Shown here: in pieces, positions 8,031 through 40,983 of the stretch
Layout: each line of letters begins with the position of its first letter
Numbering within the stretch: position 1 is the stretch's first letter
NCBI GenBank assembly: GCA_903925285.1
Contig: CAIYET010000770.1
Coordinates: 20,621 to 84,620 of the forward strand
Reading direction: 5' to 3'
DNA from: Candidatus Hydrogenedentota bacterium
GTDB lineage: Bacteria > Hydrogenedentota > Hydrogenedentia > Hydrogenedentales > SLHB01
DNA length: 64,000 nucleotides
Notes under the pieces: model-generated
Seen by the model: only the letters and a program-made list of their open reading frames with translations
What the model was told of the DNA's origin: nothing
Database searches by the model: none
Translations under genes and position numbers: made by a program

Positions 8031-8920
8031 ACGACTCTGGTTATGTGTTGATAACACCCGCACGAAACGAAGCCGCCACCATCGGACAAACAATTGAGTC
8101 CGTCGTGGCACAAACCCTGCCGCCACGAAAGTGGGTTATCGTCAGCGACGCCTCCACGGATGAGACCGACGATATCGTCAAGTCCTACGCCGCGAAGCAC
8201 GCGTTCATAACGTTCCTGCGGAAGGAAGGCGAAAACCAGCGAAACTTCGGCGCCAAGGTCTATGCCATCAGAGTCGCCTACGAACAACTGGGCGACGCCG
8301 CTTATGCCTTCATTGGCAACCTAGACGCCGACATTACATTCGAGCCCGACTACTTCCAGCGCCTGCTCTCCAAGTTCGCGCAGAATCCAAGACTCGGGAT
8401 CGGCGGCGGCTTGACCTTCGACGTGTACAACGGCGAAGTTCATGAGCGCCATGCGAGCCTCGACAGCATCGGAGGCGCCGTCCAATTGTTCCGGCGCGAG
8501 TGTTATGAGCAGATCGGCGGATACCGCCCGTTTCGTCTCGGTTCCGAGGATGCCGTTTCCCTGCACATGGCCCGCTGGAAAGGGTGGGAAACGAGCGCGT
8601 TTCCCGACTTGCCCGTCATGCACCATCGCCGGACCGGAACTGCCGAACAGAGCATATGGCGTGCGCGATTCAACCAAGGGATAACCCAGTATGCCATCGG
8701 CTGGAGCCCAGCCTTTGTGGCGCTACGCGCGATATACCGATTTCGAGAGAAACCCTACGTGTTGGGTGCTCTGGTTCGAACGGGTGGGTTCCTTTGGGCA
8801 GCAATCCGAGGCGAAGAGCGTCCGCTCGACCCAGAACTCATCCACTTCATCCGCAAAGAACAACGACAGAAACTCCTCGACGGAATCCGCGGACGCTGGC
8901 ACCCAAAGAAGATGCGCTGA
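8027..8920 (+). CDS. Family-2 glycosyltransferase
   Basis: The GT-A signature is VLITPARNEAATIGQTIESVVAQTLPP..WVIVSDASTDETDDIV, with a DxD-like NLDAD. I chose the start at Met54 of the 7868 ORF because ATGA overlaps the wzy-like stop. Confidence 0.8.
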   Translation: MNDSGYVLITPARNEAATIGQTIESVVAQTLPPRKWVIVSDASTDETDDIVKSYAAKHAFITFLRKEGENQRNFGAKVYAIRVAYEQLGDAAYAFIGNLDADITFEPDYFQRLLSKFAQNPRLGIGGGLTFDVYNGEVHERHASLDSIGGAVQLFRRECYEQIGGYRPFRLGSEDAVSLHMARWKGWETSAFPDLPVMHHRRTGTAEQSIWRARFNQGITQYAIGWSPAFVALRAIYRFREKPYVLGALVRTGGFLWAAIRGEERPLDPELIHFIRKEQRQKLLDGIRGRWHPKKMR

Positions 8921-9218: not shown

Positions 9219-10640
9219 ATGAGTAAGGGCAAGGTTTTGATAATCAGCAGCGATGCTGAACTGTCGGAAACCATTGTTCAGGTTTTGGAGCAGGCTGAGT
9301 TCGACGTGGTTGCTGCCGCCAACAAGACGACGGCTCTGGACTTGGCCAAGAGTGACGTTTTCGAACTGGTGGTGGCCAATCTCACCTCACCCGATCATTC
9401 CAGTCTGGGAATACTGAGACATCTTAAGGATTCCTTTCCCACCACCGAAATCATCATGTCCTCCACCAATCCAACCCTGGACTCGGCGATCGCATCGATC
9501 CGGGAAGGCGCGTACGACTATCTCTGGCTGCCTCAGGACTTGACTTGGCTGCCTGAGTCGGCCAGCGGCGCCATCATGCGCCGCCGGAGAAAGATGAAGA
9601 TATTCGCACCGGACGAGGTCGGCGAAACGTCCGAGGACGCGATGGAAAGAACAACGAGTTCCGGCGCGGTGCGCGGCCATGTACCGGATCCAGCCGAAGA
9701 ACTCAGTGCTTCCGTGATGATTGGCGATACCCCATCGATGGTTGCCGCGCGGCAGCTTCTCTTGCAGGTGGCTTCTTCGGATATGACAGTACTGGTGCGG
9801 GGAGAGAGTGGTACGGGGAAAGACGTTGCGGCGAGATTGATTCACCGGGTATCGCCTCGAAACGAGACGGGCACATTCGTCAAGATTACGTGTCCCGCCG
9901 TACCCGAGTCGCTGCTGGAATCCGAATTGTTCGGTTACGAACGCGGGGCTTTCACGGGCGCCGTGGCACAGAAACCCGGCCGGTTCGAATTGGCGGGCAA
10001 AGGGACCATTTTCCTGGACGAAATTGGTTCAATCTCGCTGGCCATGCAAGCCAAACTCCTCGACGTAATCGAGCACAAACAGTTCACCCGTGTCGGGGGC
10101 GTCAAGACGATCACCGTGGATGCGCGCATCATCGCGGCCACCCATTGCCCCCTCGAGGAAATGATAGCGCGCGGGGAGTTCCGAGCCGACTTGTTCTACC
10201 GGCTTGAGCAGTTCACGATTACGCTGCCGCCGCTCCGGGAAAGAACCGAAGACATACTGCGCTTGTGCCGCCATTTCTTACGTTCGCACGCCGCCAAGTA
10301 TGGCTTCAAGCACCGCAAGACTCCGTTTCACATCATGGACCGGCTGGTCCGCTACCCGTGGCCCGGCAACGTCCGTGAGTTGGAGTCCACCATTGCACGG
10401 TTTGCCCTGACCGGTGAAATCGCCACATTCGAAGATGTCATGGAACCGGCCTCGGGCGAATCCCCGGCAAGTGCACCGGTGGCCAGCAAACTGGAAGAAG
10501 TAGAGGTCGCCGCCATCAAGGCTGCTTTGGAAGAGACACGCTGGAACAGACGCAAGGCGGCGGAGAAGCTCGGTATCAGCTACAGTGCCTTGAGGCGAAG
10601 ACTGGCAAAATACGACCTTGAAGGACGTAGTAACTCGTAA
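9219..10640 (+). CDS. Sigma54-dependent enhancer-binding protein (NtrC/PrsR-like): atypical receiver + AAA+ + Fis-type HTH
   Basis: Walker A is GESGTGKDV. The GAFTGA loop (ERGAFTGA) is present. The C-terminal HTH is RWNRRKAAEKLGISYSALRRRL. The receiver has Asn at the position aligned with the phospho-acceptor Asp. Confidence 0.85.
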   Translation: MSKGKVLIISSDAELSETIVQVLEQAEFDVVAAANKTTALDLAKSDVFELVVANLTSPDHSSLGILRHLKDSFPTTEIIMSSTNPTLDSAIASIREGAYDYLWLPQDLTWLPESASGAIMRRRRKMKIFAPDEVGETSEDAMERTTSSGAVRGHVPDPAEELSASVMIGDTPSMVAARQLLLQVASSDMTVLVRGESGTGKDVAARLIHRVSPRNETGTFVKITCPAVPESLLESELFGYERGAFTGAVAQKPGRFELAGKGTIFLDEIGSISLAMQAKLLDVIEHKQFTRVGGVKTITVDARIIAATHCPLEEMIARGEFRADLFYRLEQFTITLPPLRERTEDILRLCRHFLRSHAAKYGFKHRKTPFHIMDRLVRYPWPGNVRELESTIARFALTGEIATFEDVMEPASGESPASAPVASKLEEVEVAAIKAALEETRWNRRKAAEKLGISYSALRRRLAKYDLEGRSNS

Positions 10641-10854: not shown

Positions 10855-10870
10855 TGGCACATAGATTGCT
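10855..10870 (+). promoter_or_regulatory. Sigma54 (-24/-12) promoter
   Basis: TGGCACatagaTTGCt is an exact match to TGGCAC-N5-TTGC. It lies ~50 nt upstream of the ATG at 10919, which is preceded by an AGGAG RBS, and ~215 nt downstream of the sigma54 activator gene. Confidence 0.7.
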
Positions 10871-10918: not shown

Positions 10919-11323
10919 ATGAGCGAGAATTTCAGGATGTTGAACTGGGCGATCGAACACGAACTTCGATGTTCTCAACGCTACCGGCGTTTCTTGACAG
11001 TTGTCGGTGCGGAATGCCAGGACACGGACACTGGGCTTAAGGGATTGCTCGGCGAGGTACTCCGGGGAAGTGATGAGATCATCGAGTTGGACTCGACGGA
11101 AGTGGCCATCGTCATGGCTGAAACAGACAGGCTGGGCGCGTTGATGGCCATTGACCGGTATCATGCCCGGTTCAATGGCGCCTTCGACATCCGTTTCGGT
11201 GTCGCCACGTTTCCGCTCGATGCCGGCGACCACGAGGCCCTCCTGGGCAGAGCGCGAAGCCGCCTGCTTAAGGCCAAGAAAGGGCAACCCGGCACAGTGA
11301 TCTCGGAGGACGAATCGCAATAG
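10919..11323 (+). CDS. Small stand-alone degenerate GGDEF-like protein (I-site RxxD retained, active site DSTEV)
   Basis: LRGSD-EIIEL-DSTEVAIVMAETD aligns with RxxD-x5-GGDEF-hydrophobic-xxT of diguanylate cyclases. FGVATFPLDAGDHEALLGRARSRLLKAKKG matches the GGDEF C-terminal SiGvA...AD.AlY.AK.G region. An AGGAG RBS and the sigma54 promoter lie upstream. Confidence 0.6.
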   Translation: MSENFRMLNWAIEHELRCSQRYRRFLTVVGAECQDTDTGLKGLLGEVLRGSDEIIELDSTEVAIVMAETDRLGALMAIDRYHARFNGAFDIRFGVATFPLDAGDHEALLGRARSRLLKAKKGQPGTVISEDESQ

Positions 11324-11414: not shown

Positions 11415-11855
11415 ATGTTGGAAATGCTGCGGAAGTTGACGGTAAAGAAGGCGCCGGGGAATGGAATGGAGACAAAAGGGTTTTTGTCGCAAGATGATTT
11501 CGCCGACCAGCTAATCAAGGAGCGTGCCCGTGCCGATCGTGCCGGCGCTTCTTTCACGCTGCTCGCTTTCGATGTTGAGACGCCACCGGGATTGAACGGC
11601 AAGGCCGAGGCCATGGAGATTCTCGCGTCAATACTCGCGAAGCGGGCGCGCGTCACCGATACCAAGGGTTGGTTCGGTAACCGCTTGGGCATCATCCTAC
11701 CGAACACGCCGACCGAAAACGCCGACAATGTCGTTCGACCCATTCAGGAACAGTTCAAAAAGACCGTCGTTTCCAATTCGCCACACGCGTCTAAAGCACC
11801 CAAGATTGCTTATCAGGCATATGAGTATCCGAATAATGAAATAGTAAATGTGTAG
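11415..11855 (+). CDS. Second small degenerate GGDEF-like protein (I-site RxxD retained, active site GNRLG)
   Basis: GFLSQDDFADQLIKERARADRAGASFTLLAFDVE matches the GGDEF N-terminal block. RVTD-TKGWF-GNRLGIILPNTPTENA aligns with RxxD-x5-GGDEF-xxxxPxT. The start codon is uncertain (Met1, Met4 or Met18). Confidence 0.6.
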   Translation: MLEMLRKLTVKKAPGNGMETKGFLSQDDFADQLIKERARADRAGASFTLLAFDVETPPGLNGKAEAMEILASILAKRARVTDTKGWFGNRLGIILPNTPTENADNVVRPIQEQFKKTVVSNSPHASKAPKIAYQAYEYPNNEIVNV

Positions 11856-12805: not shown

Positions 12806-15800
12806 ATGAAACGGAGAGGTTCTTCTCTTCTTTTAGATGTTGTGTCCTTATTACTTCTTGTCGGCGGTCTATATCACTCTCCGGCGTACGCCTATGCCAG
12901 TCCCGAGTCGACTTCGTTATCCGCTGATACACGGGCGGTTAAGCTGGATGCGTCGACTGTAATTCATATCCAGCCCGAGGGCGATCTTGACCCAAACTGG
13001 TCGTATGAATGGTCGGTCGATCGAGGCGAAATCGACGAGATTTCGGGCAACACAACCGCAATCTACACGGCTACAGCCGACCTGGATCCGGGGTGGGACA
13101 CCGTAACCGCGACGATCTGGGACAACTCGCCTCCGGGTCCGCCAATCCTTGTGGCAACGCGTACTATCGTGCTTCTCGTTTTCAAGCAGTTCATCATTCT
13201 CAAGGCAGACGATTGGCAACGCTGGGAATGGGCTCCGCCCGGCGCAAGTCCCAACTGGACGTATTACATGAACTATTGCATCAATGTGAAGCATATCAAG
13301 ACGTCCGCCGGCATCATGAACTTCTCCCTGGATCCGGACTACCCGGAGCCCCAACCCGCGCCCCCCGATCCCCCTATTAACTATTATCTTGCCGACTTCA
13401 TCGCCTACACCCAATCGCTCCATAACACGGGATATGTCGAGTTCTGGAATCACGGACAGACTCATATTTGCGACCCGTATGAATTCCAGGGTTCCTCGTA
13501 TGCGTTTCAGGCCGAGCATCTCGCGTACGGCCAAACCCAATCGCTGGCATTGCTTGGATTTACCTACACGGCATTCGGCGCGCCCTGTAACGCCATCGAC
13601 GACACGACTACCGCAGTCATTAATGACGCGCCAGACATCAAGGTGTGGCTCTTCGGTCTCCCCGAATCGACGAAGATGGTCCTTGAAAATGGCAACGGAG
13701 AGATTGAACCAGGCGACGTCGGCGTACCGAGTTATCTGGGTTTTCTCGCAGGGTATGACGCCGAGGCCGATTACGTCGTGCTGCAGCACCATCCCGCTTT
13801 CGAGGAATTCAGAAGCAACTTTGGCGAGTTCAATCTGATCATCGAGTACCTGCTCGACCAAAAGGCCACGTTCATCAAGCCCACCGAGTACTACCGCCTG
13901 ATCCACGACGGCATATTGCCGCTTGATCCTCAAGGCGACGTGCCGCCCTATATCACAACCCAGCCGGTGTCGCAGACGGTCAACCCTCATGACGACGTCA
14001 CGTTCACGGTGGAAAACACCGGCTCATTGCCCCTGGCCTATCAATGGAAAAAGGAAGGCGAAGAAATCCCAGACGCCACCACCGCGACCTACATAATTTC
14101 AGCCGCGACGGAAGCCGATGAAGGAGACTATGTATGTATAGCGACGAATCCGGCGGGAAGCGCCATATCCGATCCCGTCGCGTCGCTTAGCGTGAATGAC
14201 CCGCCGGAAATCGGCGAAGATCCCGTGTCACAGTCCGTGGACCCCGGCGATTCCGTGACATTCTCCGTGACGGTCACGGGCGCCCCGCCCTTGAGCTACG
14301 CATGGAGCAAAGACTACGGCGAGCCAATATCCGGCGCGACGGACGCTTCTTACTCGATAGATCACGCGACCCAAGACGATGAAGGCGAGTATGTCTGTTT
14401 TGTCAGCAATGAAGCGGGCATGATTCTCAACGACAATGAAACGTCCAATCCTGGGATGTTATGGGTGAACGATCCGCCGACGGTCACCGAGTCGCCCGTG
14501 TCTCAAACGAAAAACTTCGGCGACGTGCCGCAATTCTCGGTCGTCGTTACAGGCACCATACCCCTTTCTTTCCAATGGCGAAAGGGCGGTGTCGCCATCG
14601 AAGATGCAACGGATACGATACTGACCCTTCCCGCCGTGGCTAACGTCAACGAGGGGAGCTACGACTGCGTGGCGACCAACAGCGCCGGAACGGATACCTC
14701 TGCGTCGGCCACATTGACGGTTCAAGATCCCATCATTTTCACCCAGCCTGAAAACGTTCAAGTACTCGCGGGCGGTACGGCACACTTCAATGTCGTTGCC
14801 GGTGGCACTGGCAGCCTCTTATACAAATGGTTTCAAGGCGAAAGCCCGTTGAGCGATGGGGGCGATATTGGCGGCTCGGCGACCCCGAACCTTCAGATTG
14901 CAAACGTGACGAATCCCAATCCGGTTGAATACCACTGCGATGTAACCGGCGAGGATGGAACGATCGTCTCCGCCACGGCAACCCTCGAGGCAACCGACCC
15001 CGCCATTGCCACTCAACCCATTTCCCTTACGCGGAACCCCTCTGAAGAGGCTACGTTTTCGGTGGTTGCCATGGGGACCAGTCCGTTCACCTACCAGTGG
15101 CTCAAGAACGCCGAGAATGTACAGGGCGCTACCGAGGCGTCCTACACAATCCCGGGCGTCACAGAAGGCGACGAAGGGGAATACCGCTGCCTGATTTCCA
15201 ACAGCGTCAGTCCAGCCGGTATCCGGTCGAATCCGGCAGCCTTGGTCGTGAACGACCCGCCCATCATTACGACGCACCCCGTATCGCAGTCCGTCGATCC
15301 GACGGATCCCGTTACGTTCGCCGTGACCGCCACCGGCACGGCTCCGTTAAGCTACGAGTGGCGGAAAAACACGGTATTGATTCCCGGGGCGACCCGGTCT
15401 TCGTATTCCATCGCCGCCACCGTCCCAAATGACGCAGGCCAATATACTTGCTATGTAACTAATCAAGCGGGAATCATCTCGGCCCAAAACAAGCTGTCGG
15501 ACCCAGGCGTCCTGACGGTGAATGCGCCACCCGCCATTAGCGCCCAGCCACAGAGTGCAACAAAGAATCCGGGCGAGTCTGCAACATTCGGCATCACGGC
15601 AACCGGCGCCGCCCCTTTACAATATCAGTGGCGGAAAAACGGCAGCGAAATGCCCGGCAAGACCCTGTCCTCGCTTGGCTTCGCATCGGTAGCCGAAACC
15701 GACCAGGCGGCCTACACCTGCTACGTCAGGAACTCCGCGGGGGACAAGACCAACGCGAACGTCGAGTCCGCCCCGGCCGTGCTGACAGTGACCGACCCGC

Positions 15801-17770
15801 CCACGATTACCCGGCAGCCGGCTTCTCAGACCATCGCACCTGGGCTCTCCGTCACGTTTTCGATCGCCGCGACCGGTACATTGCCTTTCTCGTACCAGTG
15901 GAAGAAAGGTGTCCAGGATATCTCCAACGCGACGAACGCTCAGTACAGCATCGCTCATGTGTCGCAAACCGACCAGGGGCTTTATTCCTGTCATATCGCC
16001 AATTGCGCGGGAAGCGCGTTGTCGGATCAGGCCACGCTGACGGTTTTCGAGGCTGTCAAGATCGTCACCCAACCCGTTTCGGAGTCCGTGAACTATGGCG
16101 TACCCGCACAGTTCAGCGTCTCTGTCACCGGCGCGCCGCTCATCGATTTTCAGTGGCGAAGGGGAGGCGTGCCACTGGCAAACACCGGCAGGATTTCTGG
16201 CGCAGACGCGGCAACACTGCATATCGCCGCCAGCGTGAACGTGGATGAAGGCAGTTACACCTGCCGCGTCAGCAATCAGTTCGGCGCCATGACATCCTAT
16301 TCCGCGGTGCTGACGGTAAACGATCCTGCGATCGTCTCGCAGCCCCAAGGGGCGCAGGTACTGGTTGGCGGTACCGCCATGTTCTCGACGGAAGCCGTGG
16401 GCAGTGCGTTGACGTATCGGTGGTATAAAGGGGCCTCCCCATTAAGCGACGGCTCCAATATCAGCGGTTCAAGCGCGGCCACGTTGGCCGTAAGCAATTG
16501 CACCGGAGCGGACGAAGGCGCTTATCATTGTGTGGTTGGTGGCAGACCAGACCCGTCCGTGATTTCGGCAGACGCCGAACTCGATGTGGGCGATCCGGCC
16601 ATTCTCACTCAGCCGCAGTCCCAAACCGTAGATCCCGGCGTTGGGGTTACCTTCTCCATCCAGGCAGGGGGTACGCCTACATTCAGCTATCTGTGGCACA
16701 AGAATGGAATTAACATCGAAGGAGCGACGAACGACGTTTTCGTTATTGCTTCCGTCGCAGAAACCGACGAAGGCGCCTATAGCTGCCGCGTCACAAGTCC
16801 CGTTCGGCCCCTCGGAATCGAGTCGGACGAAGCAGGCCTGATCGTGAATGACCCGCCCGTCCTCGAGGGTGCGTTTGTCGACCCGCCCGGTGGACAAATC
16901 CATGCGATGAACTCCGCCAGTCTGACCGTGGGAATCTTGGGCGGTACGGCGCCCTTCTCGTACCAGTGGAAAAAGGACGGCAACAATGTCGATGACAATG
17001 GCCGGATTACGGGCAGTCGGACGGCAGCGCTTGCCGTCAATTCGGCGGTACAGGACGATGAAGGGGTTTATACCTGCGTTGTGACGAACTCGGCAGGCAG
17101 CAACACCTCCGACGCGGTTCATTTGATTGTCGGCGACCTGCTGGACTTCATCCGGCGGTTGGAGGATCAGAAAGAATACGTGGGCAAGGAAGTGCGCTTC
17201 ACGGTCCAGGTGATCGGCGGCCGTGGGACGATCGAATATGCGTGGAAGTTCCAAGGTGCGCGCAAGACGGCGATGCCGGTGGGCGCCAATTTGTCCACCT
17301 TAACGATACCCCAGGTAGCGCTGGCGGATGCCGGTTTATACTGGTGCGACGTGACGGACCAGCGGGGAACGCATCCCTCGAATCAAGCGGCACTCCAAGT
17401 GGCGTCTTCTTCCTTGGAGATCATCCAGGATCCGAGCGGCGGGCAGGGCACGTTAGGTTCACGGTACGAGTTCACCGTAGCGACGCGTGGCGGTTTCCTG
17501 CCCCTAACATACGAATGGCGCAAGGGTGACGTGCCGATTTCTTCCGCCACCACCTCAACGTTCACGATTCCGTCACTCCAAGATACGGATGCGGGAATCT
17601 ACACGGTCATCGTTTCGGACAGCGATTTCCATGTGTGTCAATCGAACACGGCCATTCTCGAAGTGATATCGGGCTTGTCGGTCGGCGGCCTTGCAGGTCT
17701 CTTACTGTTGACAACCATGCTTGCATTGGCCAGCACAGTCGTCTTGCGGAAATTTTTTCATATGATATAG
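12806..17770 (+). CDS. Giant surface protein, paralog 1: signal peptide, small beta-sandwich, CE4/DUF2334-like head (DD and H-x3-H present), 14 I-set-type Ig repeats, C-terminal TM anchor
   Basis: A signal peptide is present. The head carries ILKADDW...FWNHGQTH. There are 14 repeats of ~90 aa carrying [YF]xW[KR]K...DxGxYxC...N. The protein ends with a hydrophobic helix plus RK. Confidence 0.8.
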   Translation: MKRRGSSLLLDVVSLLLLVGGLYHSPAYAYASPESTSLSADTRAVKLDASTVIHIQPEGDLDPNWSYEWSVDRGEIDEISGNTTAIYTATADLDPGWDTVTATIWDNSPPGPPILVATRTIVLLVFKQFIILKADDWQRWEWAPPGASPNWTYYMNYCINVKHIKTSAGIMNFSLDPDYPEPQPAPPDPPINYYLADFIAYTQSLHNTGYVEFWNHGQTHICDPYEFQGSSYAFQAEHLAYGQTQSLALLGFTYTAFGAPCNAIDDTTTAVINDAPDIKVWLFGLPESTKMVLENGNGEIEPGDVGVPSYLGFLAGYDAEADYVVLQHHPAFEEFRSNFGEFNLIIEYLLDQKATFIKPTEYYRLIHDGILPLDPQGDVPPYITTQPVSQTVNPHDDVTFTVENTGSLPLAYQWKKEGEEIPDATTATYIISAATEADEGDYVCIATNPAGSAISDPVASLSVNDPPEIGEDPVSQSVDPGDSVTFSVTVTGAPPLSYAWSKDYGEPISGATDASYSIDHATQDDEGEYVCFVSNEAGMILNDNETSNPGMLWVNDPPTVTESPVSQTKNFGDVPQFSVVVTGTIPLSFQWRKGGVAIEDATDTILTLPAVANVNEGSYDCVATNSAGTDTSASATLTVQDPIIFTQPENVQVLAGGTAHFNVVAGGTGSLLYKWFQGESPLSDGGDIGGSATPNLQIANVTNPNPVEYHCDVTGEDGTIVSATATLEATDPAIATQPISLTRNPSEEATFSVVAMGTSPFTYQWLKNAENVQGATEASYTIPGVTEGDEGEYRCLISNSVSPAGIRSNPAALVVNDPPIITTHPVSQSVDPTDPVTFAVTATGTAPLSYEWRKNTVLIPGATRSSYSIAATVPNDAGQYTCYVTNQAGIISAQNKLSDPGVLTVNAPPAISAQPQSATKNPGESATFGITATGAAPLQYQWRKNGSEMPGKTLSSLGFASVAETDQAAYTCYVRNSAGDKTNANVESAPAVLTVTDPPTITRQPASQTIAPGLSVTFSIAATGTLPFSYQWKKGVQDISNATNAQYSIAHVSQTDQGLYSCHIANCAGSALSDQATLTVFEAVKIVTQPVSESVNYGVPAQFSVSVTGAPLIDFQWRRGGVPLANTGRISGADAATLHIAASVNVDEGSYTCRVSNQFGAMTSYSAVLTVNDPAIVSQPQGAQVLVGGTAMFSTEAVGSALTYRWYKGASPLSDGSNISGSSAATLAVSNCTGADEGAYHCVVGGRPDPSVISADAELDVGDPAILTQPQSQTVDPGVGVTFSIQAGGTPTFSYLWHKNGINIEGATNDVFVIASVAETDEGAYSCRVTSPVRPLGIESDEAGLIVNDPPVLEGAFVDPPGGQIHAMNSASLTVGILGGTAPFSYQWKKDGNNVDDNGRITGSRTAALAVNSAVQDDEGVYTCVVTNSAGSNTSDAVHLIVGDLLDFIRRLEDQKEYVGKEVRFTVQVIGGRGTIEYAWKFQGARKTAMPVGANLSTLTIPQVALADAGLYWCDVTDQRGTHPSNQAALQVASSSLEIIQDPSGGQGTLGSRYEFTVATRGGFLPLTYEWRKGDVPISSATTSTFTIPSLQDTDAGIYTVIVSDSDFHVCQSNTAILEVISGLSVGGLAGLLLLTTMLALASTVVLRKFFHMI

Positions 17771-17797
17771 TTTCTTAGCGTAGTAGAAGGGATCCCG

Positions 17798-20700
17798 ATG
17801 AGAGCCAATTGGACAAGGGAAATACTGAAATTCAAGAGGAAGGTTCTGGCTGGCTTCATACTGGCCATGGTTCTGGCGGCGCCGGGTTACGCCTTTGTCG
17901 ACCCCGAAACCATCTCCCTGTCAGCCGACTCCAAATCGGTCCGTTTGAACGAGACGACCATCATTCGTATTAACGAGACCGACTTGGACCCGCAGTGGAC
18001 CTATCAGTGGAGTGCCGTGAGGGGGGCGGTCGTCGCGAACCCCAATCCCCTCGCCCCCCATACGGCCATTTACACGGCGACGGCGGGATTGGATCCGGGA
18101 GAGGATGTTATCACGGTCGCGATCTACGATAACACCCCGCGGCTTCTTGCAACACGAACAGCCGTCGTTCTGGTTTTCAAGCAATTCATCGTCCTGAAAG
18201 CCGGCACGTGGGGCGTTATCACCACTAACTGGCAGTACTATTTTCAGCAGCTCCTCGATCTCCACATCAAGACGGCCGTTGCCATAATAACGCATTTCAT
18301 CGACCCGCTTTATTCCGGGTATGCCGGCCCTGCGTTTGTCACGTACACGAAAGCCAGACATGACAGTGGTTATGTCGAGTTCTGGAATAACGGGTATGAC
18401 TTCTCGAACGGTGCAGGTCCGCCAGCCTGGTGGGAATTCAGGGGAACGACCTACGGCTCTCAAAAGACACACCTCGAGGCCGGGCAGACGCTCGCCAACA
18501 CCACGTTGGGGTTTCCGTTCACGGCATTCGGCGCTCCCTACAACCAGTTGGATACAACCACCACTACGGTCGTCAACGAATCCCCCGAATTGCGGGTATG
18601 GCTATTCGGCGCAGCTACCGGCTCCACCAAAATGGTACTGACCCACGCTAACGGCGAGATAGAACAAACGACTGGACTGCCGAGTTTTACCTATTTCATG
18701 AGTACCTATAGCGCCACGCCCCGGTACGTCGTCCTCCAACACAATCCGGGCATGAATTCCTTCTACACCAACTTCCAACAGTTCAGGGACATCCTTAACT
18801 ACCTTATCGCCCAGAAGGTCACGTTTATCCTACCCACCGAGTATTGCCGCTTGATCCAGGACGGGATCCTCCCGTCAAACCCGGGCCGGACACCTTTCTT
18901 CATGGTGCAGCCAACCTCGCAGACGGTTAACCCGACGCAGAAAATCACCTTGACCGCTACGGCCTTGGGTACACAGCCCATCTCCTACCAGTGGAAAAAG
19001 GGCGGGACTAACGTTTCCGATGCGACGACCGATACGCTCATCATCACCGCTGCCGGACAATCGGACGAAGGCAGCTACCTATGCACGGCGACAAATATCC
19101 ACGGGAGTACGGATTCCAATCCAGCGACTTTGGCGGTCGACGATCCGCCGACGATTACCACCCAACCATTGTCCCAAACCCTGGATCCCGGCGTTTCGGT
19201 GACATTCACGGTCGAAGCGACTGGGACGGCCCCGTTGAGTTACGAGTGGCGAAAAGACAATTCGACCATTCCCGATGCCACGGATCCATCCTACACAATT
19301 TATCCCGTGGCCGAGTCGGATGAGGGCGCATACGCCTGTTACGTCAGCAATGCGGCCGGCAGCCAGGCCAGCCAGAACGTACTTTCCAACTCGGCGTTTT
19401 TTTCGGTGAACAACCCCGCTTACGTCATTGCCGACCCGGTGTCGGCCACTACGGACTACGGACTTTCGGCAACGTTTTACGTGATGGCAGGGGGGACTCC
19501 GCCCATCAGCTATCAGTGGCGCAGGAATGGCATCGGCATCGGCGCCGCCACCGACACGGAATACGCGATCGACAACTGCTCGAACGCCGAAGAGGACAAC
19601 TATGACTGCGTAGTGACAAACAGCGCAGGAGGCAGCGCCTCCGCAGCCGCTCGATTGGCCGTCAACGATCCTATTATCATCGGACAGCCGGAGGATGCGC
19701 AAGCGCTCGCGATGTCGACGGTGCACTTCACGGTCACTGCGGCTGGCAGCGGCGAGATCGCCTACCAATGGTTCAAAGAAACGACGGTGCTCGAGGACGC
19801 CGGAAAGATCAGCGGCGCCACCTCGCGAATCCTCCAAATCGAGGGTGTAACGGACTCCGATCAAGGGGTCTATCACTGCGCAGTCACCGGAGGCGATCCT
19901 ACGATTGTGACCCGCGACGCCCTTTTGGAGATCAGCGACCCTGCGTTTACAACGGAACCTCTGTCGCAGACCGTGAATCCCACCGATTCGGTGACCTTCT
20001 CCATCCGGGCGGTGGGTACGCCGCCATTCAGCTATCAGTGGCGGGATACGAACGGAATCGACATCGAAGGAGCGACGAGTGAGGATTTCGTTATTCCATC
20101 CGTTGCAGAAACCGACGAAGGCGCCTATAGCTGCCTCGTCACAAGTCACGTCCGGCCCTTGGGCTTCGAGTCGGCTCAGGCAGGCCTGGTCGTGAACGAC
20201 CCGCCCCTGATCGAAACGCAGCCCGAGTCGAAATCGGTCGATCCCACCGATCTCGTCGTGTTTAGCGTAGTGGCCACGGGCACGGATCCCTTGAGTTACG
20301 AGTGGCGCATAGGCGGCGTGCCGATTCCCGGCGCTACACGCGCAACCTATACCATTGTCTCCGCGCAGCAATCCGACGCGGGGCCGTACACCTGCTATGT
20401 GGCCAACGAGGCTGGCACGGTGTCCGGTCACAACACGACATCCGGCCCGGCTGTCCTGTATCTCTACGGTTTGCCGACCATTACGGTCCCGCCCATAAGT
20501 CAGACGGTGGATCCGAACCATCTCGTGACATTCAGCGTTGTGGCGGCAAGTGAAACGCCAATGAGCTATCAGTGGCGCCTGAACGATCTCAACATTCCAG
20601 ACATGACCGAGTCGACGTTGAGCATTCCGCTTGTCCAGGAGAGCGACGAAGGCGACTATACTTGCGTTGTCGGCAATTCCGCCGGAGACAAGACGAATAC

Positions 20701-22744
20701 GAATACGATATCCGCCCCAGCGACGCTGACGGTCAATGATCCCCCCGTCATCGTCGTTCAACCCGAGTCGCAACTCATCGCACCGGAATATGAAGTGTCT
20801 TTCTCGGTAACGATTACCGGTACGCCGCCTTTCAGCTTCCAATGGAGGAAAGGTGCGACTACTATCGGTGAAGAGACCGCTGACTCCTACACGAGTTCCT
20901 ACACCATTGCATCCGTGGCATCGAGCGACGCTGGCGTCTACTACTGTCACGTTAGGAACAGCGCGGGGCAGGTTACTTCCGATGGTGCGACGCTGAGGGT
21001 TCTGGAACCGGCAAGGATTGTGACCCAACCGGTCTCGCAGGAACTCAACTATGGGACAGCGGTGGAGTTTTACGTACAGGCGGACGGAATGTTACCGCTC
21101 TATTACGAGTGGAGAAAGAATGGCATTGCGCTCGTGGACGGCGGTAGGGTGTTGGGCGTTTCCGAGGCCCGGCTGAGCATCGAGGCTGCCGAAAACGGAG
21201 ATGAAGGCGATTACACCTGCTACGTTATCAACGATTTTGGCGGCATCGAATCGGCGGCCGCCACGCTGATTGTCCATGATCCCGCCATCACCGCGCAGCC
21301 TCAGCACCAAAGTGTGATGGGCGGCCACACGGCGCAGTTCTCGATAGGCGCGGTCGGCAGCAACCCTGTTTACAGGTGGTACAAGAACGGCCTGGCGTTA
21401 AGCGATACCGGCAGCATCGGCGGCTCGTCCACAGCCGTATTGAATGTCGACAACTGCCAAGTCGCCGACGAAGGCGTCTATCGCTGCACGGTCGCCGGCG
21501 GACCGGATGCGGATGTAACCTCGCAAGACGCAACACTCGCGATCGACGACCCCGCCGTCATTACACAACCGCAATCACAGACGGTTGACCCGGACGATAC
21601 AGTGACGTTCGCATTGGAGGTCGATCTCGATAGCTCCACGCCCATCACCTTTCAGTGGCGCAAAGACGGCAATGATATCCAGGACGCGAGCGGTGGTGTA
21701 ACGATCGGTCTCCCGATCACGTACGTCATCGCCAACGCGGCAGAGACGGACGAAGGCAGTTATACCTGCCTGCTCCGCGGGTTCGAGGACGTTGTCTCCA
21801 ACGCCGCGACGTTGAGCGTCAACGACGTTCCCGTTATTTCGGGCGTGGACGTGGACCCGCCGGACGCCCGGATCCAACTATCGAGCTCGGCCAGTTTCAC
21901 CGTTCAGTTGTCTGGCGGGACGGAGCCAATCTCGTACGAGTGGAAGAAAGATGGGATCGTCCTTACCGAGAGCGACCACGTCTCGGGTGTTTCGCAGCGG
22001 ACGCTGATCGTTAATCCCGCGCAACAGCAGGATGAAGGCCGCTATACGTGTGCCGTCTACAATTCCGCGGGCAGGGCGGTGTCTTCGGAGGTATATCTGA
22101 TTGTCGGCGAGATCCGTGCTTTTACGCAGCAGCCCTTAACCGAGCAAAAGAAATACATTGGCCAAGCGGTGCAGTTCGAGGTCGAGACCGTGGGGGGCCG
22201 CGGAACGCCTCACTACGCTTGGACATTCGACGAACGGCAAAAAACCACACAACCCGTGGGTGACGATTCACCCCTGCTGGTTTTCACGGTCACGCAGGCA
22301 AAGGCCGGCGCGTATAGGTGCGGCGTAACCGATGAGCGGGACACCTATTACTCGAATACGTCCACACTGGACGTTGCGTCGCCACTCGAGATACTCCAAC
22401 AACCACGAGGAGGTCTTGTGGCCGAAGGTTCCCTGCACACCTTTGCCGTGCAAACAAGCGGTGGATTCTTACCATTGGCTTATGAATGGCACAAGTACGA
22501 TGTCCCCACGGTTCTTGGAACGAACGTAACGTTGACGCTCGACCCCCTTCAAACGAGTGATTCCGGATCCTACTATGTCATTGTGTCAGACGCCATCAGC
22601 AGCGTCGAATCCAACACCGCTCCCTTGTTCGTCGGCACAAACGTTCCCGCAGCGGGCTTTGTGGCCTTGGGACTGTTGGCAGGAATATGCACCTTGGTTG
22701 GCGCGCTCACACTCGGTTCGAGGGGGCGTTCCACGTTTCCGTAA
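17798..22744 (+). CDS. Giant surface protein, paralog 2: same architecture, 14 Ig repeats, head motifs substituted (GT and N-x3-F)
   Basis: Collinear with paralog 1. For example, repeat 4 has WF[QK], repeat 10 has YRWYK and repeat 13 has YAW in both. The C-terminus is VPAAGFVALGLLAGICTLVGALTLGSRGR. Confidence 0.8.
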   Translation: MRANWTREILKFKRKVLAGFILAMVLAAPGYAFVDPETISLSADSKSVRLNETTIIRINETDLDPQWTYQWSAVRGAVVANPNPLAPHTAIYTATAGLDPGEDVITVAIYDNTPRLLATRTAVVLVFKQFIVLKAGTWGVITTNWQYYFQQLLDLHIKTAVAIITHFIDPLYSGYAGPAFVTYTKARHDSGYVEFWNNGYDFSNGAGPPAWWEFRGTTYGSQKTHLEAGQTLANTTLGFPFTAFGAPYNQLDTTTTTVVNESPELRVWLFGAATGSTKMVLTHANGEIEQTTGLPSFTYFMSTYSATPRYVVLQHNPGMNSFYTNFQQFRDILNYLIAQKVTFILPTEYCRLIQDGILPSNPGRTPFFMVQPTSQTVNPTQKITLTATALGTQPISYQWKKGGTNVSDATTDTLIITAAGQSDEGSYLCTATNIHGSTDSNPATLAVDDPPTITTQPLSQTLDPGVSVTFTVEATGTAPLSYEWRKDNSTIPDATDPSYTIYPVAESDEGAYACYVSNAAGSQASQNVLSNSAFFSVNNPAYVIADPVSATTDYGLSATFYVMAGGTPPISYQWRRNGIGIGAATDTEYAIDNCSNAEEDNYDCVVTNSAGGSASAAARLAVNDPIIIGQPEDAQALAMSTVHFTVTAAGSGEIAYQWFKETTVLEDAGKISGATSRILQIEGVTDSDQGVYHCAVTGGDPTIVTRDALLEISDPAFTTEPLSQTVNPTDSVTFSIRAVGTPPFSYQWRDTNGIDIEGATSEDFVIPSVAETDEGAYSCLVTSHVRPLGFESAQAGLVVNDPPLIETQPESKSVDPTDLVVFSVVATGTDPLSYEWRIGGVPIPGATRATYTIVSAQQSDAGPYTCYVANEAGTVSGHNTTSGPAVLYLYGLPTITVPPISQTVDPNHLVTFSVVAASETPMSYQWRLNDLNIPDMTESTLSIPLVQESDEGDYTCVVGNSAGDKTNTNTISAPATLTVNDPPVIVVQPESQLIAPEYEVSFSVTITGTPPFSFQWRKGATTIGEETADSYTSSYTIASVASSDAGVYYCHVRNSAGQVTSDGATLRVLEPARIVTQPVSQELNYGTAVEFYVQADGMLPLYYEWRKNGIALVDGGRVLGVSEARLSIEAAENGDEGDYTCYVINDFGGIESAAATLIVHDPAITAQPQHQSVMGGHTAQFSIGAVGSNPVYRWYKNGLALSDTGSIGGSSTAVLNVDNCQVADEGVYRCTVAGGPDADVTSQDATLAIDDPAVITQPQSQTVDPDDTVTFALEVDLDSSTPITFQWRKDGNDIQDASGGVTIGLPITYVIANAAETDEGSYTCLLRGFEDVVSNAATLSVNDVPVISGVDVDPPDARIQLSSSASFTVQLSGGTEPISYEWKKDGIVLTESDHVSGVSQRTLIVNPAQQQDEGRYTCAVYNSAGRAVSSEVYLIVGEIRAFTQQPLTEQKKYIGQAVQFEVETVGGRGTPHYAWTFDERQKTTQPVGDDSPLLVFTVTQAKAGAYRCGVTDERDTYYSNTSTLDVASPLEILQQPRGGLVAEGSLHTFAVQTSGGFLPLAYEWHKYDVPTVLGTNVTLTLDPLQTSDSGSYYVIVSDAISSVESNTAPLFVGTNVPAAGFVALGLLAGICTLVGALTLGSRGRSTFP

Positions 22745-22753
22745 GTCCAAACG

Positions 22754-24916
22754 TTACGGACAACGCCTCTTGAAGCATCCTGCCGTGGACGCGGCCAACA
22801 TGAACGCTAGGAGTATCAGTGCGGAGACGCTGGCCGCTGGTAGCGGAACCAGGTTTACGACAAGAGTCACCGTATCCGACGTGACTGAGGCTTCTGTTTC
22901 ATCGGCCACCACGACCGCGTAGTCGCCTTGGTTCTCGATTGAGACTGAATCCATGACCAGCGCCGCCTCGGTAGCGTCCAAAATCAGGTTGCCGTCTTTG
23001 TACCATTGATACGACAACACCCCGACTCCGCCCGTTGCCTGGATGAAGAACGTAAAGGATTCTCCCGCGTTGGCCTGACCGCTTTTCGGTTGAAGTAAAA
23101 TCGTTAGAGGAGCCAGGTTTACGACAAGAGTCACCGTATCCGATGTGACTGAGGCGTGTGTTTCATCGGTCACCACGACCGCGTAGTCGCCTTGGTCTTC
23201 GATTGAGACTGAATCCATGACCAGCGCCGCTTCGGTAGCGTCCAAAAGCAGGCTGCCGTCTTTGTACCATTGATACGACAACACCCCGATTCCGCCCGTT
23301 GCCTGGGTAAAGAACGTAAAGGATTCTCCTGCGTTGGTCTGACCGCTTATTGGCTGAAGTGAAATCGCCAGAGGTTCGAAGAACTCGTAGGCGCCAATAT
23401 CGGGTCCAATACCCTGGGGTATCGGAATAGCGTCGAAATCGAATAGAATCCCCGCGTCGGTACCGGCATCTATGCAGGGGGAGGCCACTTGCAGATGGTA
23501 GTCGCGAAGCGCGGCGTTTGCAAACAAGGGATCCCCGCCGACGGCGTGGGTGTCGAATCCGGAGGCCGTGCTGTAGCCGGTCAAAGTCTGGTAGGTCGTC
23601 GAACCAACCTGAATGGCATCCGAACCGAGCGGCATGTGCAACCAGCAATTGTAGTCGATCACCTTGTTGGTTGCGCTTGCCATCTTCAATACCGGACTCC
23701 AAGTTGGTACGGAATTCGTCATGCCGATGTTGTTCTTCAACGTCGTGTTACACGTTCCATCATCAAGATAGAAGTTGTACTGCCTGCAATTCGTAACGGT
23801 GTTGTTGTAAATCTGGGAGTTCACCAGCGTTGTGCCCGACAGGAATAGTCCGTTCCACGTTAGATCATAAACCACGTTGCCGTACACCTTGGGGTTCATC
23901 AGGTTGGGCCAGCTACTATCCGTTATCAAAACGATGCCGTTAATATTCTCGGTGAATCCCGGCGTGGCGTATACGGTGTTGTACCGGACGATGTTGCCGG
24001 TCGGGCTTGAAGGGCCACCCTTTATGTCAATGCAATGATGATGGGCATTGTATGAAATGCACTTCTCGACGATCGCGTTTGAACAGTCGATCACATTGAT
24101 GTTGTTGCCGCCGGATTCATAGACGACGCATTGTGTGACCAAGTGGTTGTAGCCCGAGATCATGGAAAGTCCCATTTTGTCGATGGCATTATGGGACGGT
24201 GGATCAAGACGCCCAGCATGATGCAGCACAACATCGCGAATAATCCAGTTGTCATTTGTCGGAAAAACAAATAAGGTCTGATGATTGGCATTCTTCAACT
24301 CGAGACTCTCGATCGTGATGTAGTCCGAGTTCCCGTTCCACACTCCCTGGACACAATAATCACGGGCGGCCACCTGGATATCCCCTGGAAGCGAAATCGA
24401 ATATACATACAGAATATCCAATGTCCAATACCAACTGCCGCTCGCAGCTAATTCAACTACCGAGCCCATGTGGACACCACGCTCTCCGTCAAAAAAGACC
24501 AAATCGGGCGTTGGGGCTTTCTCTATCGGCGTCCACGGAAGGTTTGCCCGCCAAATGTGTGAGCCTGACGCCGTCTCGGTCCATCCTGTGACTGGGTCGG
24601 AACCGGTTATTATCGGGCGATTCCCATCGCCGTAGGCGCCAAACACGATCCGTGAAGAAGCGTTGCCACTCGTTGCGTTGACGAGAAGTGTCTCACGCCA
24701 AGTTCCTCCCCGCTTGAAGAGAATGGAGTCTCCCGGAAGAAAATGGGATATATCGACCTTGTGAATGGTTTTCCACGCATCGGCGTCCGACAATCCGTTC
24801 CAACTGTCATTACCCCCAACGGAATCGACGTAAAACAGCCTGGCGTCGGCTGTCAGACAAGGCACAATCCCTAACAGGAAGACAACCCACGCCCAAGATG
24901 ATTGATTCTTCTTCAT
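22754..24916 (-). CDS. Secreted right-handed beta-helix (pectate-lyase/NosD-like) protein with two Ig repeats and PEP-CTERM-like tail
   Basis: The signal peptide is MKKNQSSWAWVVFLLGIVPCLTADA. RLFYVDSVGGNDSWNGLS..AWKTIHK and serial N-rich beta-helix rungs follow. Two 88-aa Ig repeats are present. The tail is VPLPAASVSALILLAFMLAASTAGCFKRR. I chose the start at Met14 of the listed ORF. Confidence 0.7.
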   Translation of the reverse strand: MKKNQSSWAWVVFLLGIVPCLTADARLFYVDSVGGNDSWNGLSDADAWKTIHKVDISHFLPGDSILFKRGGTWRETLLVNATSGNASSRIVFGAYGDGNRPIITGSDPVTGWTETASGSHIWRANLPWTPIEKAPTPDLVFFDGERGVHMGSVVELAASGSWYWTLDILYVYSISLPGDIQVAARDYCVQGVWNGNSDYITIESLELKNANHQTLFVFPTNDNWIIRDVVLHHAGRLDPPSHNAIDKMGLSMISGYNHLVTQCVVYESGGNNINVIDCSNAIVEKCISYNAHHHCIDIKGGPSSPTGNIVRYNTVYATPGFTENINGIVLITDSSWPNLMNPKVYGNVVYDLTWNGLFLSGTTLVNSQIYNNTVTNCRQYNFYLDDGTCNTTLKNNIGMTNSVPTWSPVLKMASATNKVIDYNCWLHMPLGSDAIQVGSTTYQTLTGYSTASGFDTHAVGGDPLFANAALRDYHLQVASPCIDAGTDAGILFDFDAIPIPQGIGPDIGAYEFFEPLAISLQPISGQTNAGESFTFFTQATGGIGVLSYQWYKDGSLLLDATEAALVMDSVSIEDQGDYAVVVTDETHASVTSDTVTLVVNLAPLTILLQPKSGQANAGESFTFFIQATGGVGVLSYQWYKDGNLILDATEAALVMDSVSIENQGDYAVVVADETEASVTSDTVTLVVNLVPLPAASVSALILLAFMLAASTAGCFKRRCP
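22851..23378. repeat. Near-identical tandem duplication, 2 x 264 bp (88 codons), inside the beta-helix gene
   Basis: The unit starting aggtttacgacaagagtcaccgtatccga occurs at 22851 and again at 23115. The encoded repeats differ at ~10 of 88 residues. Confidence 0.85.
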
Positions 24917-25557
24917 CGGAATCCAACGCAACGTCAACTTAACGAGTTTTGTCAAAGTTAGCTGGATAAATTCTATCCGTATTCTCCCTTTCTTGTCAAT
25001 AAACGCTTACAGGAATGTCTTATCCGGTCAAGAAACGGCGGCTTCTGGTGTTGGGTCCACAATACGTGCTGTCATCCTTGGCCGTGTGTTGAATTTGGCC
25101 ATTTATGGCGTTGCGAAATTCGTTCAGAATTATCACTTCTATGCGCTTTTCCTCTTCAGATTCCGCGATGTGGTCGCCAAACACGCGATTTGGACGCAAG
25201 AACGTAACGAGCCGCGATTGAACGGTTGCTGGAACCGGCGGCTGGCAAAGGCCGGATAATGCACGGATCGGGAACCCAGCGGCTTAGCCCAAGGTCGGCT
25301 GTTCGTCAGGAATAAAATGCAACGATTCGTCGTTAGCCCCACAACCGTTTGGACCCGCTCATGGCTGATCCCGTTCCAGCTTCCAGGAACAACCTGAAAT
25401 GCGATGCAAGCACGTGCAATGATCCTTGCGTTCCGCTTCGTGCATAATCGCACCATGTCGTGCTATATTCGCTCAGCAACCGATCGCAGCAATCGCGGGA
25501 TGATGCCGTGTGTGCGTTTTGGGAGGCCCATCCCAAGAACGCCGTTCTGGAGGGGGC

Positions 25558-28988: not shown

Positions 28989-29016
28989 ACTCCCCTTCTC
29001 ATGGAGCGGAGGGCGA

Positions 29017-37137: not shown

Positions 37138-40983
<3,846 letters not shown>

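Follow-up and report, generated by a model that had tools for sequence, protein, structure and literature searches.

Why would a bacterium keep, directly beside a probable envelope enzyme, a full-length copy of that enzyme from which the catalytic residues have gone? This question is raised by two adjacent genes at positions 12806 to 22744 of a 64,000-nucleotide (nt) stretch of contig CAIYET010000770.1 from a Candidatus Hydrogenedentota bacterium, the whole of which is referred to here as the window. A first-pass annotation of this DNA had described the genes as tandem paralogs of about 1650 amino acids (aa) with a shared layout and had proposed that they encode an enzyme and a non-catalytic derivative. 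We show that the coordinates and lengths of this pair are exact, that both products carry a head domain predicted to have the NodB fold of the CE4 esterases and deacetylases, and that the head of the second paralog has lost all five catalytic-type residues while keeping the rest of the family signature, a pattern which supports the proposed pairing. We also examine the stalks on which these heads stand, the polysaccharide locus around the genes and the explanations that compete for the function of the pair.

Architecture of the gene pair

The two genes and their N-terminal parts are as follows.

12806..17770, + strand: paralog 1 gene, 1654 aa; signal peptide, beta-sandwich, intact CE4/DUF2334-type head, 14 immunoglobulin (Ig) domains and C-terminal tail
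17798..22744, + strand: paralog 2 gene, 1648 aa; layout as in paralog 1, head without all five catalytic-type residues
12908..13180, + strand: paralog 1 N-terminal beta-sandwich, aa ~35-125; strands at 37-126 in the AlphaFold2 (AF2) model, with a predicted local distance difference test score (pLDDT) >90
13181..13915, + strand: paralog 1 head, predicted NodB/CE4-fold (beta/alpha) barrel, aa ~126-370 (~245 aa); the family hidden Markov model (HMM) spans aa 123-370
18176..18868, + strand: paralog 2 head, predicted NodB/CE4 fold kept, aa ~127-357

The products are collinear from end to end, with 48% identity (792/1660, BLASTP) and 14 Ig_3 domains in each, and are identical to database proteins P0033 (paralog 1) and P0164 (paralog 2). 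A Sec-type signal peptide is recognizable by eye at both N-termini and coincides with helices in the AF2 models (residues 6-23 in paralog 1 and 2-27 in paralog 2). The N-terminal beta-sandwich is kept in most homologs in the family alignment. Pfam gave no above-threshold match within the first ~370 residues of either paralog, and the identity of the head was therefore approached through structure and through relatives.

Fold and family of the head domains

AF2 models built from the family alignment were confident for both heads (paralog 1: pLDDT 90.6, predicted template modelling score 0.86; paralog 2: 92.3 and 0.84), and in both an all-beta domain at the N-terminus precedes one in which beta and alpha elements alternate. 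Foldseek comparison with the Protein Data Bank (PDB) placed the CE4 esterases/deacetylases 7ax7, 2c71 and 7fbw as the best matches of both heads (target-normalised template modelling score 0.75-0.80, E 1e-9 to 1e-7); further matches included the Fn3+NodB proteins BC0361 and BA0330 and, for the paralog 2 head, the 'CE4 pseudoenzyme' BA3943. Alignments of paralog 1 to the Fn3+NodB proteins 4hd5 and 4v33 extended over 336-377 columns. The first-pass annotation had likened the head to CE4/DUF2334 proteins and had named structure prediction as a way to check this; a CE4/NodB fold was indeed recovered for both heads.

A search of the PDB with single head sequences found no match for either head. The best Pfam match of both window heads was DUF2334 (PF10096), at scores below threshold (18.2, 18.0 and 19.1 bits against a gathering score of 26), and a Pfam scan gave no match to Polysacc_deac_1 (PF01522) for either. 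A database search with the paralog 1 head returned 21 homologs (best 44% identity, E 3e-87), most of which carry PF10096 and several PF01522. When 15 trimmed family members were scanned singly, DUF2334 was present in 15/15 and Polysacc_deac_1 in 11/15 at E <0.01, with weak GH57 matches in two; among close relatives, P0022 and P0024 scored 71 and 66 bits for DUF2334, and P0024 reached 32.7 bits for PF01522 against a cutoff of 23.1. These matches of their relatives support, transitively, homology of the window heads to DUF2334. The profile of the trimmed family, compared with PDB sequences, aligned EfWNHGydH to the CE4 metal motif HSYSH of 7y51/7fbw (PDB profile E 0.003) and FGAPgN to FRPPFG, the CE4 motif 3 of the same structures. 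Thus, from the structural models, the Pfam matches of the relatives and the family profile together, the heads are predicted NodB-fold domains of the DUF2334 branch, with their motifs in NodB1 order as defined for NodB1 and NodB2 deacetylases (PMC10967932). An exhaustive HMM search of 1.84 billion representatives gathered 4547 relatives at E <1e-3 and 683 at E <1e-30.

Selective loss of catalytic residues in paralog 2

The motifs that distinguish the two heads are the following.

13208..13213, + strand: D135-D136 of paralog 1, motif ILKADD; corresponds to CE4 motif 1 (catalytic base and metal ligand), a role expected from knowledge of CE4 enzymes
13451..13465, + strand: H216-x3-H220 of paralog 1, motif WNHGQTH; corresponds to the CE4 motif 2 metal ligands, with His codons at 13451 and 13463
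13790..13792, + strand: H329 of paralog 1, motif LQHHP; putative equivalent, by position and motif form, of the CE4 motif 5 catalytic His
18203..18208, + strand: G136-T137 of paralog 2 (LKAGT), in place of the motif 1 DD
18389..18403, + strand: N198...F202 of paralog 2 (FWNNGYDF), in place of the motif 2 His pair
18743..18745, + strand: N316 of paralog 2 (LQHNP), in place of the motif 5 His

The first two motifs had been picked out before, and the DD at 13208-13213, the His codons at 13451 and 13463, LKAGTW at 18203-18208 and FWNNGYDF at the aligned positions are all exactly where the first-pass annotation placed them; it had missed the third lost motif, the change from QHHP to QHNP.

Each of D135, D136, H216, H220 and H329 is conserved in 18/18 homologs, and the corresponding residues of paralog 2 are G, T, N, F and N. 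The pentad DDHHH, which paralog 1 has and for which paralog 2 has GTNFN, occurs in 156 of the 178 head domains found in the best 150 representatives and in 84/93 head domains of genome loci searched by HMM. Conservation elsewhere in the head follows a different course: among 38 columns that are >=88% conserved in the 18 homologs, paralog 1 departs from the family residue once and paralog 2 eight times, so that the latter keeps 30/38. Besides the five catalytic columns, these eight include G169A, an I to V change of a conservative kind and a deviation common to both paralogs. By our own combinatorial estimate, the chance that all five catalytic columns would fall among the seven unshared deviations is ~5e-5. 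The family-specific invariant residues K133, E212, E226, Q235, E301 and Q327 are present in both paralogs. In the AF2 model of paralog 1 the catalytic residues lie at or just after the C-terminal ends of the predicted barrel strands 129-137, 211-215 and 323-328, the ends at which NodB active sites form (PMC10967932). Neither of the two findings that would have told against the first-pass proposal, a head of a different fold and a DD/HxxxH set dispersed in space, was made. Because five of five catalytic residues were lost while the other family signature was kept, the loss appears targeted and not a product of decay, and we regard paralog 2 as a maintained pseudoenzyme that is predicted to be inactive.

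Selection, history and relatives of the pair

The first-pass annotation had called for an estimate of the ratio of nonsynonymous to synonymous substitution rates (dN/dS) between the paralogs. Synonymous sites are saturated (proportion of synonymous differences, pS, 0.72) and dN is 0.44 in the head and likewise in the stalk, giving a dN/dS <= ~0.2 that is an upper bound because of this saturation and that indicates purifying selection. In a neighbour-joining tree the window heads are sisters (154/200 bootstraps) with near-equal branch lengths, and the nearest clade consists of the N-terminal heads of multi-head proteins. Given the saturated pS, the low dN/dS and the equal branches, paralog 2 is, as judged by these substitution measures, an old duplicate under purifying selection and not a decaying copy.

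Degenerate pentads elsewhere in the family are concentrated in single-chain metagenomic proteins with two or three heads, as listed here.

P0022: degenerate heads EDKHH and DVNRQ; one other head, intact
P0023: degenerate heads ENACH and EDSHH; one other head, intact
P0024: degenerate head EDSRH; one other head, intact
P0026: degenerate head DDHHS; one other head, intact
P0027: degenerate head DNYHH; one other head, intact
P0061: degenerate heads DDHSH and DDHSH; no other head

Among the heads compared, that of paralog 2 (GTNFN) is the most fully disarmed. A scan of a genome collection, made with catalytic-motif patterns and so biased to intact heads, was followed by an HMM search of the fetched loci; the best head match was 46% identical, and the window's own genome is absent from the collection. 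At 9/80 of these genome loci, mostly in Hydrogenedentes and in metagenome-assembled genomes (MAGs) labelled Nitrospirales, two or three head genes are adjacent and all copies are intact. Multiplication of the head is therefore common in the family and the pairing of intact with degenerate heads recurs in cis, while pairing in trans with a fully dead twin was found in the window and at none of the 80 genome loci. A search with the paralog 2 head gave one distant match, a result which is limited by the word index and says nothing on a wider dead-head lineage. Relatives of the window proteins also carry other stalks (Big_12 or Bact_surface_Ig-like) and accessory modules that include dockerin, TSP3, FGE-sulfatase and other modules of secreted carbohydrate-active enzymes.

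The Ig stalk and its probable expansion

Behind the heads, the two proteins continue as follows.

13937..17689, + strand: paralog 1 stalk, 14 diverged Ig_3/I-set domains, aa 378-1628 (Pfam and repeat segmentation)
18884..22660, + strand: paralog 2 stalk, 14 Ig_3/I-set domains, collinear with those of paralog 1
17690..17767, + strand: paralog 1 C-terminal tail, hydrophobic segment followed by RK (hydropathy scan)
22661..22741, + strand: paralog 2 C-terminal tail, NVPAAG, hydrophobic segment, SRGRS

Pfam recognized 14 Ig_3 stretches in each protein (E 1e-134 for paralog 1, 2e-137 for paralog 2) and 13 and 12 I-set stretches, respectively (E 5e-127 and 2e-124). The eukaryote-like I-set signature described in the first-pass annotation holds in so far as [YF]xW and DxGxYxC-type motifs are found in each repeat, with YxC in 13/14 and YxV in the 14th; the canonical pair of cysteines is another matter, since each domain has one conserved Cys (in the F-strand YxC) with the B-strand partner absent, and the B-F disulfide of eukaryotic Ig domains is thus missing. 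Each exported paralog consequently carries 13 unpaired conserved cysteines, and the relative described below is alike in this.

Mean identity between Ig repeats of the two paralogs is 50% for pairs at equal positions (the diagonal) and 36% for the other pairs. This collinearity of the 14 repeats implies that the gene was duplicated whole, with all of them in place. Tandem Repeats Finder (TRF) detected no DNA-level tandem repeat in 12806-22744; the stalk is therefore predicted to be of fixed length, and a variable stalk of the Periscope type, which we considered, was rejected on this result and on the ~36% protein identity of the repeats. One non-collinear pair of repeats, repeat 11 of paralog 1 (16586-16858) and repeat 5 of paralog 2 (19931-20203), shares 69% protein and 79% DNA identity, compared with ~50% and 60-63% for collinear pairs, which suggests later gene conversion or recombination between the paralogs.

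A syntenic locus, L002, in a MAG labelled Nitrospiraceae, has homologs of Wzx, Wzy, GT2, oxidoreductase, priming transferase and tyrosine kinase in common with the window, and encodes two proteins with intact heads.

L002 9608-11992: intact-head protein with four Ig domains and a transmembrane/RRR tail
L002 13226-15046: intact-head protein with TSP3 repeats, one Ig domain and a dockerin

The former (794 aa) ends in a GVPLAG-helix-RRR tail. Its Ig repeat 1 is closest to repeat 1 of the window proteins and its repeats 3 and 4 are closest to window repeats 13 and 14; its repeat 2 is closest to repeats 11-12 in paralog 1 (45%), but to repeat 6 in paralog 2 (47%). As the L002 repeats match window repeat 1, the middle, 13 and 14, the window stalk is probably the result of a ten-repeat expansion, from 4 to 14 Ig domains. 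Named homologs of the CarA protein are nearly all from Candidatus Hydrogenedentes (74-80% identity), which places the organism there, with one labelled Nitrospiraceae (83%). This last match suggests that L002 may in truth come from a relative within Hydrogenedentes and owe its Nitrospiraceae label to a fault of binning or annotation.

The tails end in a hydrophobic segment and basic residues, and this type is common to four secreted Ig-bearing window proteins (12806-17770, 17798-22744, 22754-24955 on the - strand and 37138-40983 on the + strand), two of which have VP(L)PAA ahead of the hydrophobic helix. NCBIfam and Pfam models searched against the tails at E up to 10 gave no sorting-signal match, a weak negative given the short models and the HMMER filters, and no exosortase- or sortase-like enzyme was found by NCBIfam or Pfam among the scanned open reading frames (ORFs) of the window. 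The C-terminal transmembrane anchor of the first-pass annotation corresponds to this hydrophobic-plus-basic tail, which may be a membrane anchor or an unrecognized sorting signal.

Genomic context

The genes stand within a polysaccharide locus, of which the main features are these.

950-1696, + strand: tyrosine-kinase-like protein
1853-2785, + strand: canonical CE4 deacetylase, IcaB/PgaB-like
2760-3929, + strand: FemAB-like protein
4098-5114, + strand: sugar oxidoreductase
5146-6630, + strand: Wzx
6624-8030, + strand: Wzy
7868-8920, + strand: GT2
9219-10640, + strand: sigma-54 response regulator (activator)
10855..10870, + strand: sigma-54 -24/-12 promoter-like element TGGCACATAGATTGCT, of putative function, upstream of a putative operon and 215 nt after the activator gene
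10919-11323 and 11415-11855, + strand: two small ORFs, 134 and 146 aa
11923..12777, + strand: priming phosphoglycosyl transferase (Bac_transf), Pfam E 2e-61; NCBIfam EPS_sugtrans E 3.5e-77, below cutoff
22754..24955, - strand: convergent gene for a secreted beta-helix protein with two Ig domains, 733 aa; tail VPLPAAS, hydrophobic segment, KRR; Pfam Beta_helix and Ig_3
25510-26916, + strand: polytopic membrane protein of the polysaccharide locus, 468 aa, no Pfam or NCBIfam match
27131-28051, + strand: epimerase
28032-29048, - strand: GT2
29679-31034, - strand: second priming transferase

Paralog 1 begins 28 nt after the priming transferase and paralog 2 begins 27 nt after paralog 1, with a GAAGGG resembling a ribosome-binding site ahead of paralog 2 that is similar to that of paralog 1; terminator-like sites are no commoner than chance. 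The sigma-54 consensus TGGCAC-N5-TTGCW has one exact match in the 64-kb window, where 0.04 would be expected. With two mismatches there was no enrichment (30 found, 30 expected), so that only the exact match is meaningful. The gene pair is probably co-transcribed with the priming transferase from this candidate promoter. Several neighbours weakly resemble components of the XrtA/PEP-CTERM system, all below curated cutoffs.

The canonical CE4 protein of the locus (1853-2785) has a motif-5-like VVLYYH near its N-terminus and apparently the permuted NodB2 order of PgaB and IcaB, to judge from a non-significant hhalign alignment and weak NCBIfam IcaB/PgaB matches. Alignment of the head family profile with this protein by hhalign was likewise set aside as not significant (probability 0.3); a linear alignment was unlikely to work because the protein looks IcaB/PgaB-like, with motif 5 first. 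The two small ORFs resemble degenerate GGDEF-like domains by eye, and the second (11415-11855) has a 36% identical homolog adjoining the transferase in L002. Within the 733-aa beta-helix gene, a 264-nt unit occurs twice at 91% identity (22841-23374, - strand), so that a single Ig domain has recently been duplicated in tandem there, in contrast to the old, diverged repeats of the paralogs. A 1281-aa secreted protein (37138-40983, + strand) combines I-set/Ig_3, CARDB, DUF1565 (beta-helix), PKD, bacterial TSP3 and CarboxypepD_reg domains, and I-set-type Ig domains are evidently widely used by this organism. A large beta-galactosidase and other secreted Ig-bearing beta-helix proteins are also encoded in the window.

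Proposed function and alternatives

On balance we consider it probable that the pair comprises a tethered polysaccharide deacetylase and a glycan-binding or partner derivative of it, with the polymer of the locus as target. The mechanism that we infer, in respect of enzymatic activity, binding, substrate and surface exposure, is as follows. Both products would be Sec-exported envelope proteins in which the head, formed by the beta-sandwich and the NodB/CE4 barrel, is carried at the N-terminal tip of a rigid 14-Ig stalk that is held by its hydrophobic-plus-basic tail. Paralog 1 would most likely be a metal-dependent de-O- or de-N-acetylase acting on polysaccharide, because the Asp-His-His metal triad and the catalytic Asp and His are kept, and paralog 2 would be incapable of deacetylase chemistry because all five of these residues are lost; it would most likely bind glycan, as a lectin-like module, or act as the enzyme's partner. 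The substrate or ligand is most likely the locus's own Wzx/Wzy polymer, so that paralog 1 might edit the acetylation of the matrix away from the membrane and paralog 2 might hold this matrix. On the assumption of ~4.3 nm per Ig domain, a value for titin-type domains, a 14-Ig stalk, if extended, would be roughly 55-60 nm long. A stronger form of this proposal, in which writer and reader work at a fixed distance, with the intact head deacetylating the cell's own exopolysaccharide, the dead head binding the product or substrate and the stalk serving as a molecular ruler ~55-60 nm from the membrane, strikes us as distinctly improbable; were it true, stalk length (4 versus 14 Ig domains) would be an evolvable parameter of capsule architecture, and both DUF2334 and the bacterial I-set stalks that lack a known adhesive domain would gain their first function.

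Several observations weigh against the deacetylase-and-derivative proposal. The window proteins themselves fall below the Pfam thresholds for the head; at the CE4 motif 3 position the Pro is invariant, in both paralogs too, and the usual Arg is absent, CE4 motif 4 was not identifiable in the window heads, and the clustering of the five catalytic residues is deduced from the strand topology of the models. The missing Arg of motif 3 can come from elsewhere, as in NodB2 and Agd3 (PMC10967932). In the literature searched, mentions of DUF2334/PF10096 are incidental and include no member with a tested function. A canonical CE4 deacetylase is already present in the locus (1853-2785), and polysaccharide-synthesis neighbours, as detected with the window's proteins, accompany 5/80 family loci, which led us to reject a family-wide link to exopolysaccharide loci and to treat the link as a local one. 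Finally, a ~60 nm stalk anchored in the inner membrane would be at odds with the periplasm of a diderm, should the organism be one.

That rarity of polysaccharide-synthesis genes beside family members (5/80 loci) also favours the view that the paralogs are fibrillar adhesins or foraging devices directed at foreign glycans, such as chitin, peptidoglycan, acetylated polysaccharides of plants and algae or the matrices of other cells, which the stalk would reach, paralog 1 would deacetylate for capture or breakdown and paralog 2 would bind, the exopolysaccharide locus being incidental. The dockerin, TSP3 and FGE-sulfatase modules of relatives, the secreted Ig beta-helix proteins and large beta-galactosidase encoded in the window, and the standing of I-set as a known stalk domain of fibrillar-adhesin-like proteins that lack a known adhesive domain (PMC8286594) point the same way. 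However, the genes are packed tightly behind a priming glycosyltransferase and downstream of a putative sigma-54 promoter, and are syntenic with the same polysaccharide genes in L002, and we judge foraging to be unlikely, though it is a serious competitor. We would place in a similar position, unlikely yet worth keeping in view, the suggestion that the tail serves as a sorting signal, cleaved by some exosortase-like system not yet described, which would attach the Ig proteins to the polymer or to the outside of the cell: the motif-helix-basic layout shared by four Ig-bearing window proteins, the VP(L)PAA of two of them, the GVPLAG-helix-RRR of L002 and the faint XrtA/PEP-CTERM likeness of neighbours fit it, but the tails match no NCBIfam or Pfam model, no exosortase-like gene was found among the scanned ORFs of the 64-kb window, and paralog 1 is without the VPxxA motif.

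Two further explanations concern the heads themselves. Paralog 2 could be a neofunctionalised enzyme, or paralog 1 another metal-site hydrolase than a deacetylase, or both, given that the NodB fold also hosts allantoinases and other chemistries (PMC10967932), that K133, E212, E226, Q235, E301 and Q327 persist in both paralogs and that two family members have weak GH57 matches. This is very unlikely in our view, since paralog 2 shows no other evident set of catalytic residues, G, T, N, F and N being atypical in that role, and since every one of the closest structural matches is an esterase or a deacetylase. The least likely rival, to which we attach almost no weight, makes paralog 2 a functionless duplicate on its way to a pseudogene. 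Loss of all five catalytic residues and the failure of close relatives of the dead head to turn up, in a search limited by its word index, would be expected of such a copy; yet its 4.9-kb ORF is intact despite a pS of 0.72 and ~50% amino-acid divergence, its dN/dS is <= ~0.2, 30/38 family-conserved columns are kept, AF2 models its head no less confidently than the head of paralog 1, its branch is equal in length, and all 14 Ig domains and the tail have been retained. The proposal of a tethered deacetylase and its binding or partner derivative is the one that we favour.

Significance of the pair

With 4547 representative clusters at E <1e-3, DUF2334 is large, yet almost nothing has been published on it, and the pair constitutes a natural experiment within this family: an intact and a disarmed head on the same scaffold, pointing to the catalytic residues of the family and to a possible binding-only role. 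It likewise offers a concrete candidate head function for bacterial I-set stalks, on which surveys of fibrillar adhesins found no known adhesive domain, and a testable idea of how uncultured Hydrogenedentes may edit or retain their matrix.

Comparison with known systems

The (beta/alpha) barrel of both heads is shared with the CE4 family of NodB-domain deacetylases and acetylxylan esterases (e.g. CtCE4 2c71, SpPgdA 2c1g, PgaB and IcaB), and paralog 1 has the order and form of CE4 motif 1 (xxDD), motif 2 (H-x3-H) and motif 5 (L-x-H), with the Pro in the motif 3 position. For many CE4 members the substrate is an exopolysaccharide whose synthesis is encoded in the locus around them. The window heads differ from CE4 in being marginal in sequence (no PF01522 match, profile E 0.003), in the motif 3 Arg and motif 4, which are not recognizable, in their own invariant residues (K133, E212, E226-F227, Q235, E301 and Q327) and in standing on a 14-Ig stalk. 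DUF2334 (PF10096), their best if sub-threshold Pfam match, is an uncharacterized branch of the glycoside hydrolase/deacetylase superfamily. A deacetylase is likewise paired with a catalytically different or inert glycan-binding partner in PgaB, which joins an active CE4 domain to a non-deacetylase carbohydrate-binding domain that handles the same polymer, the two being of unrelated folds within a single periplasmic protein; here, in contrast, the partner is a paralog of the enzyme, separately encoded, and both are on stalks.

A NodB fold minus catalytic residues, as in paralog 2, but kept as a functional non-enzyme, is known from the CE4 pseudoenzymes and inactive envelope proteins of Bacillus (BA3943, BA0150 and BA0330/BA0331), and the top structural matches of the window heads include this Bacillus CE4-like set (6hm9/7bkf, 4m1b, 4v33 and 4hd5). 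BA0330 and BA0331 are membrane-tethered lipoproteins, have a beta-sandwich ahead of the NodB domain, show no deacetylase activity and stabilize the wall (PMC4505593). The Bacillus proteins, which lack a long stalk and one or two of the catalytic residues, belong to a monoderm, where peptidoglycan is their target, whereas the dead copy described here is in tandem with an intact twin, is part of an exopolysaccharide locus and is missing all five residues.

In their outline, a head on a tandem Ig-like stalk with a putative C-terminal anchor, the window proteins resemble fibrillar adhesins and Periscope proteins such as SasG, Rib and Sgo_0707, and the recorded stalk domains of bacteria include I-set, there unaccompanied by any known adhesive domain (PMC8286594). 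They differ in that the head has an enzyme fold in place of a known adhesive domain and that the tail is of an unrecognized type. Rapid length switching, which defines Periscope proteins (PMC8201768), is not expected here because the repeats have diverged (mean 36%) and TRF found none at the DNA level; stalk length has changed over evolution all the same, with 4 Ig domains in the L002 protein against 14 here. No new principle is claimed, as there are precedents for CE4 pseudoenzymes, for stalked surface proteins and for exopolysaccharide deacetylases. What is new is their combination: a probable enzyme and its predicted dead twin in tandem on long I-set stalks in a putative exopolysaccharide operon, with a disarmament that extends to five residues and a stalk probably expanded from four to 14 domains.

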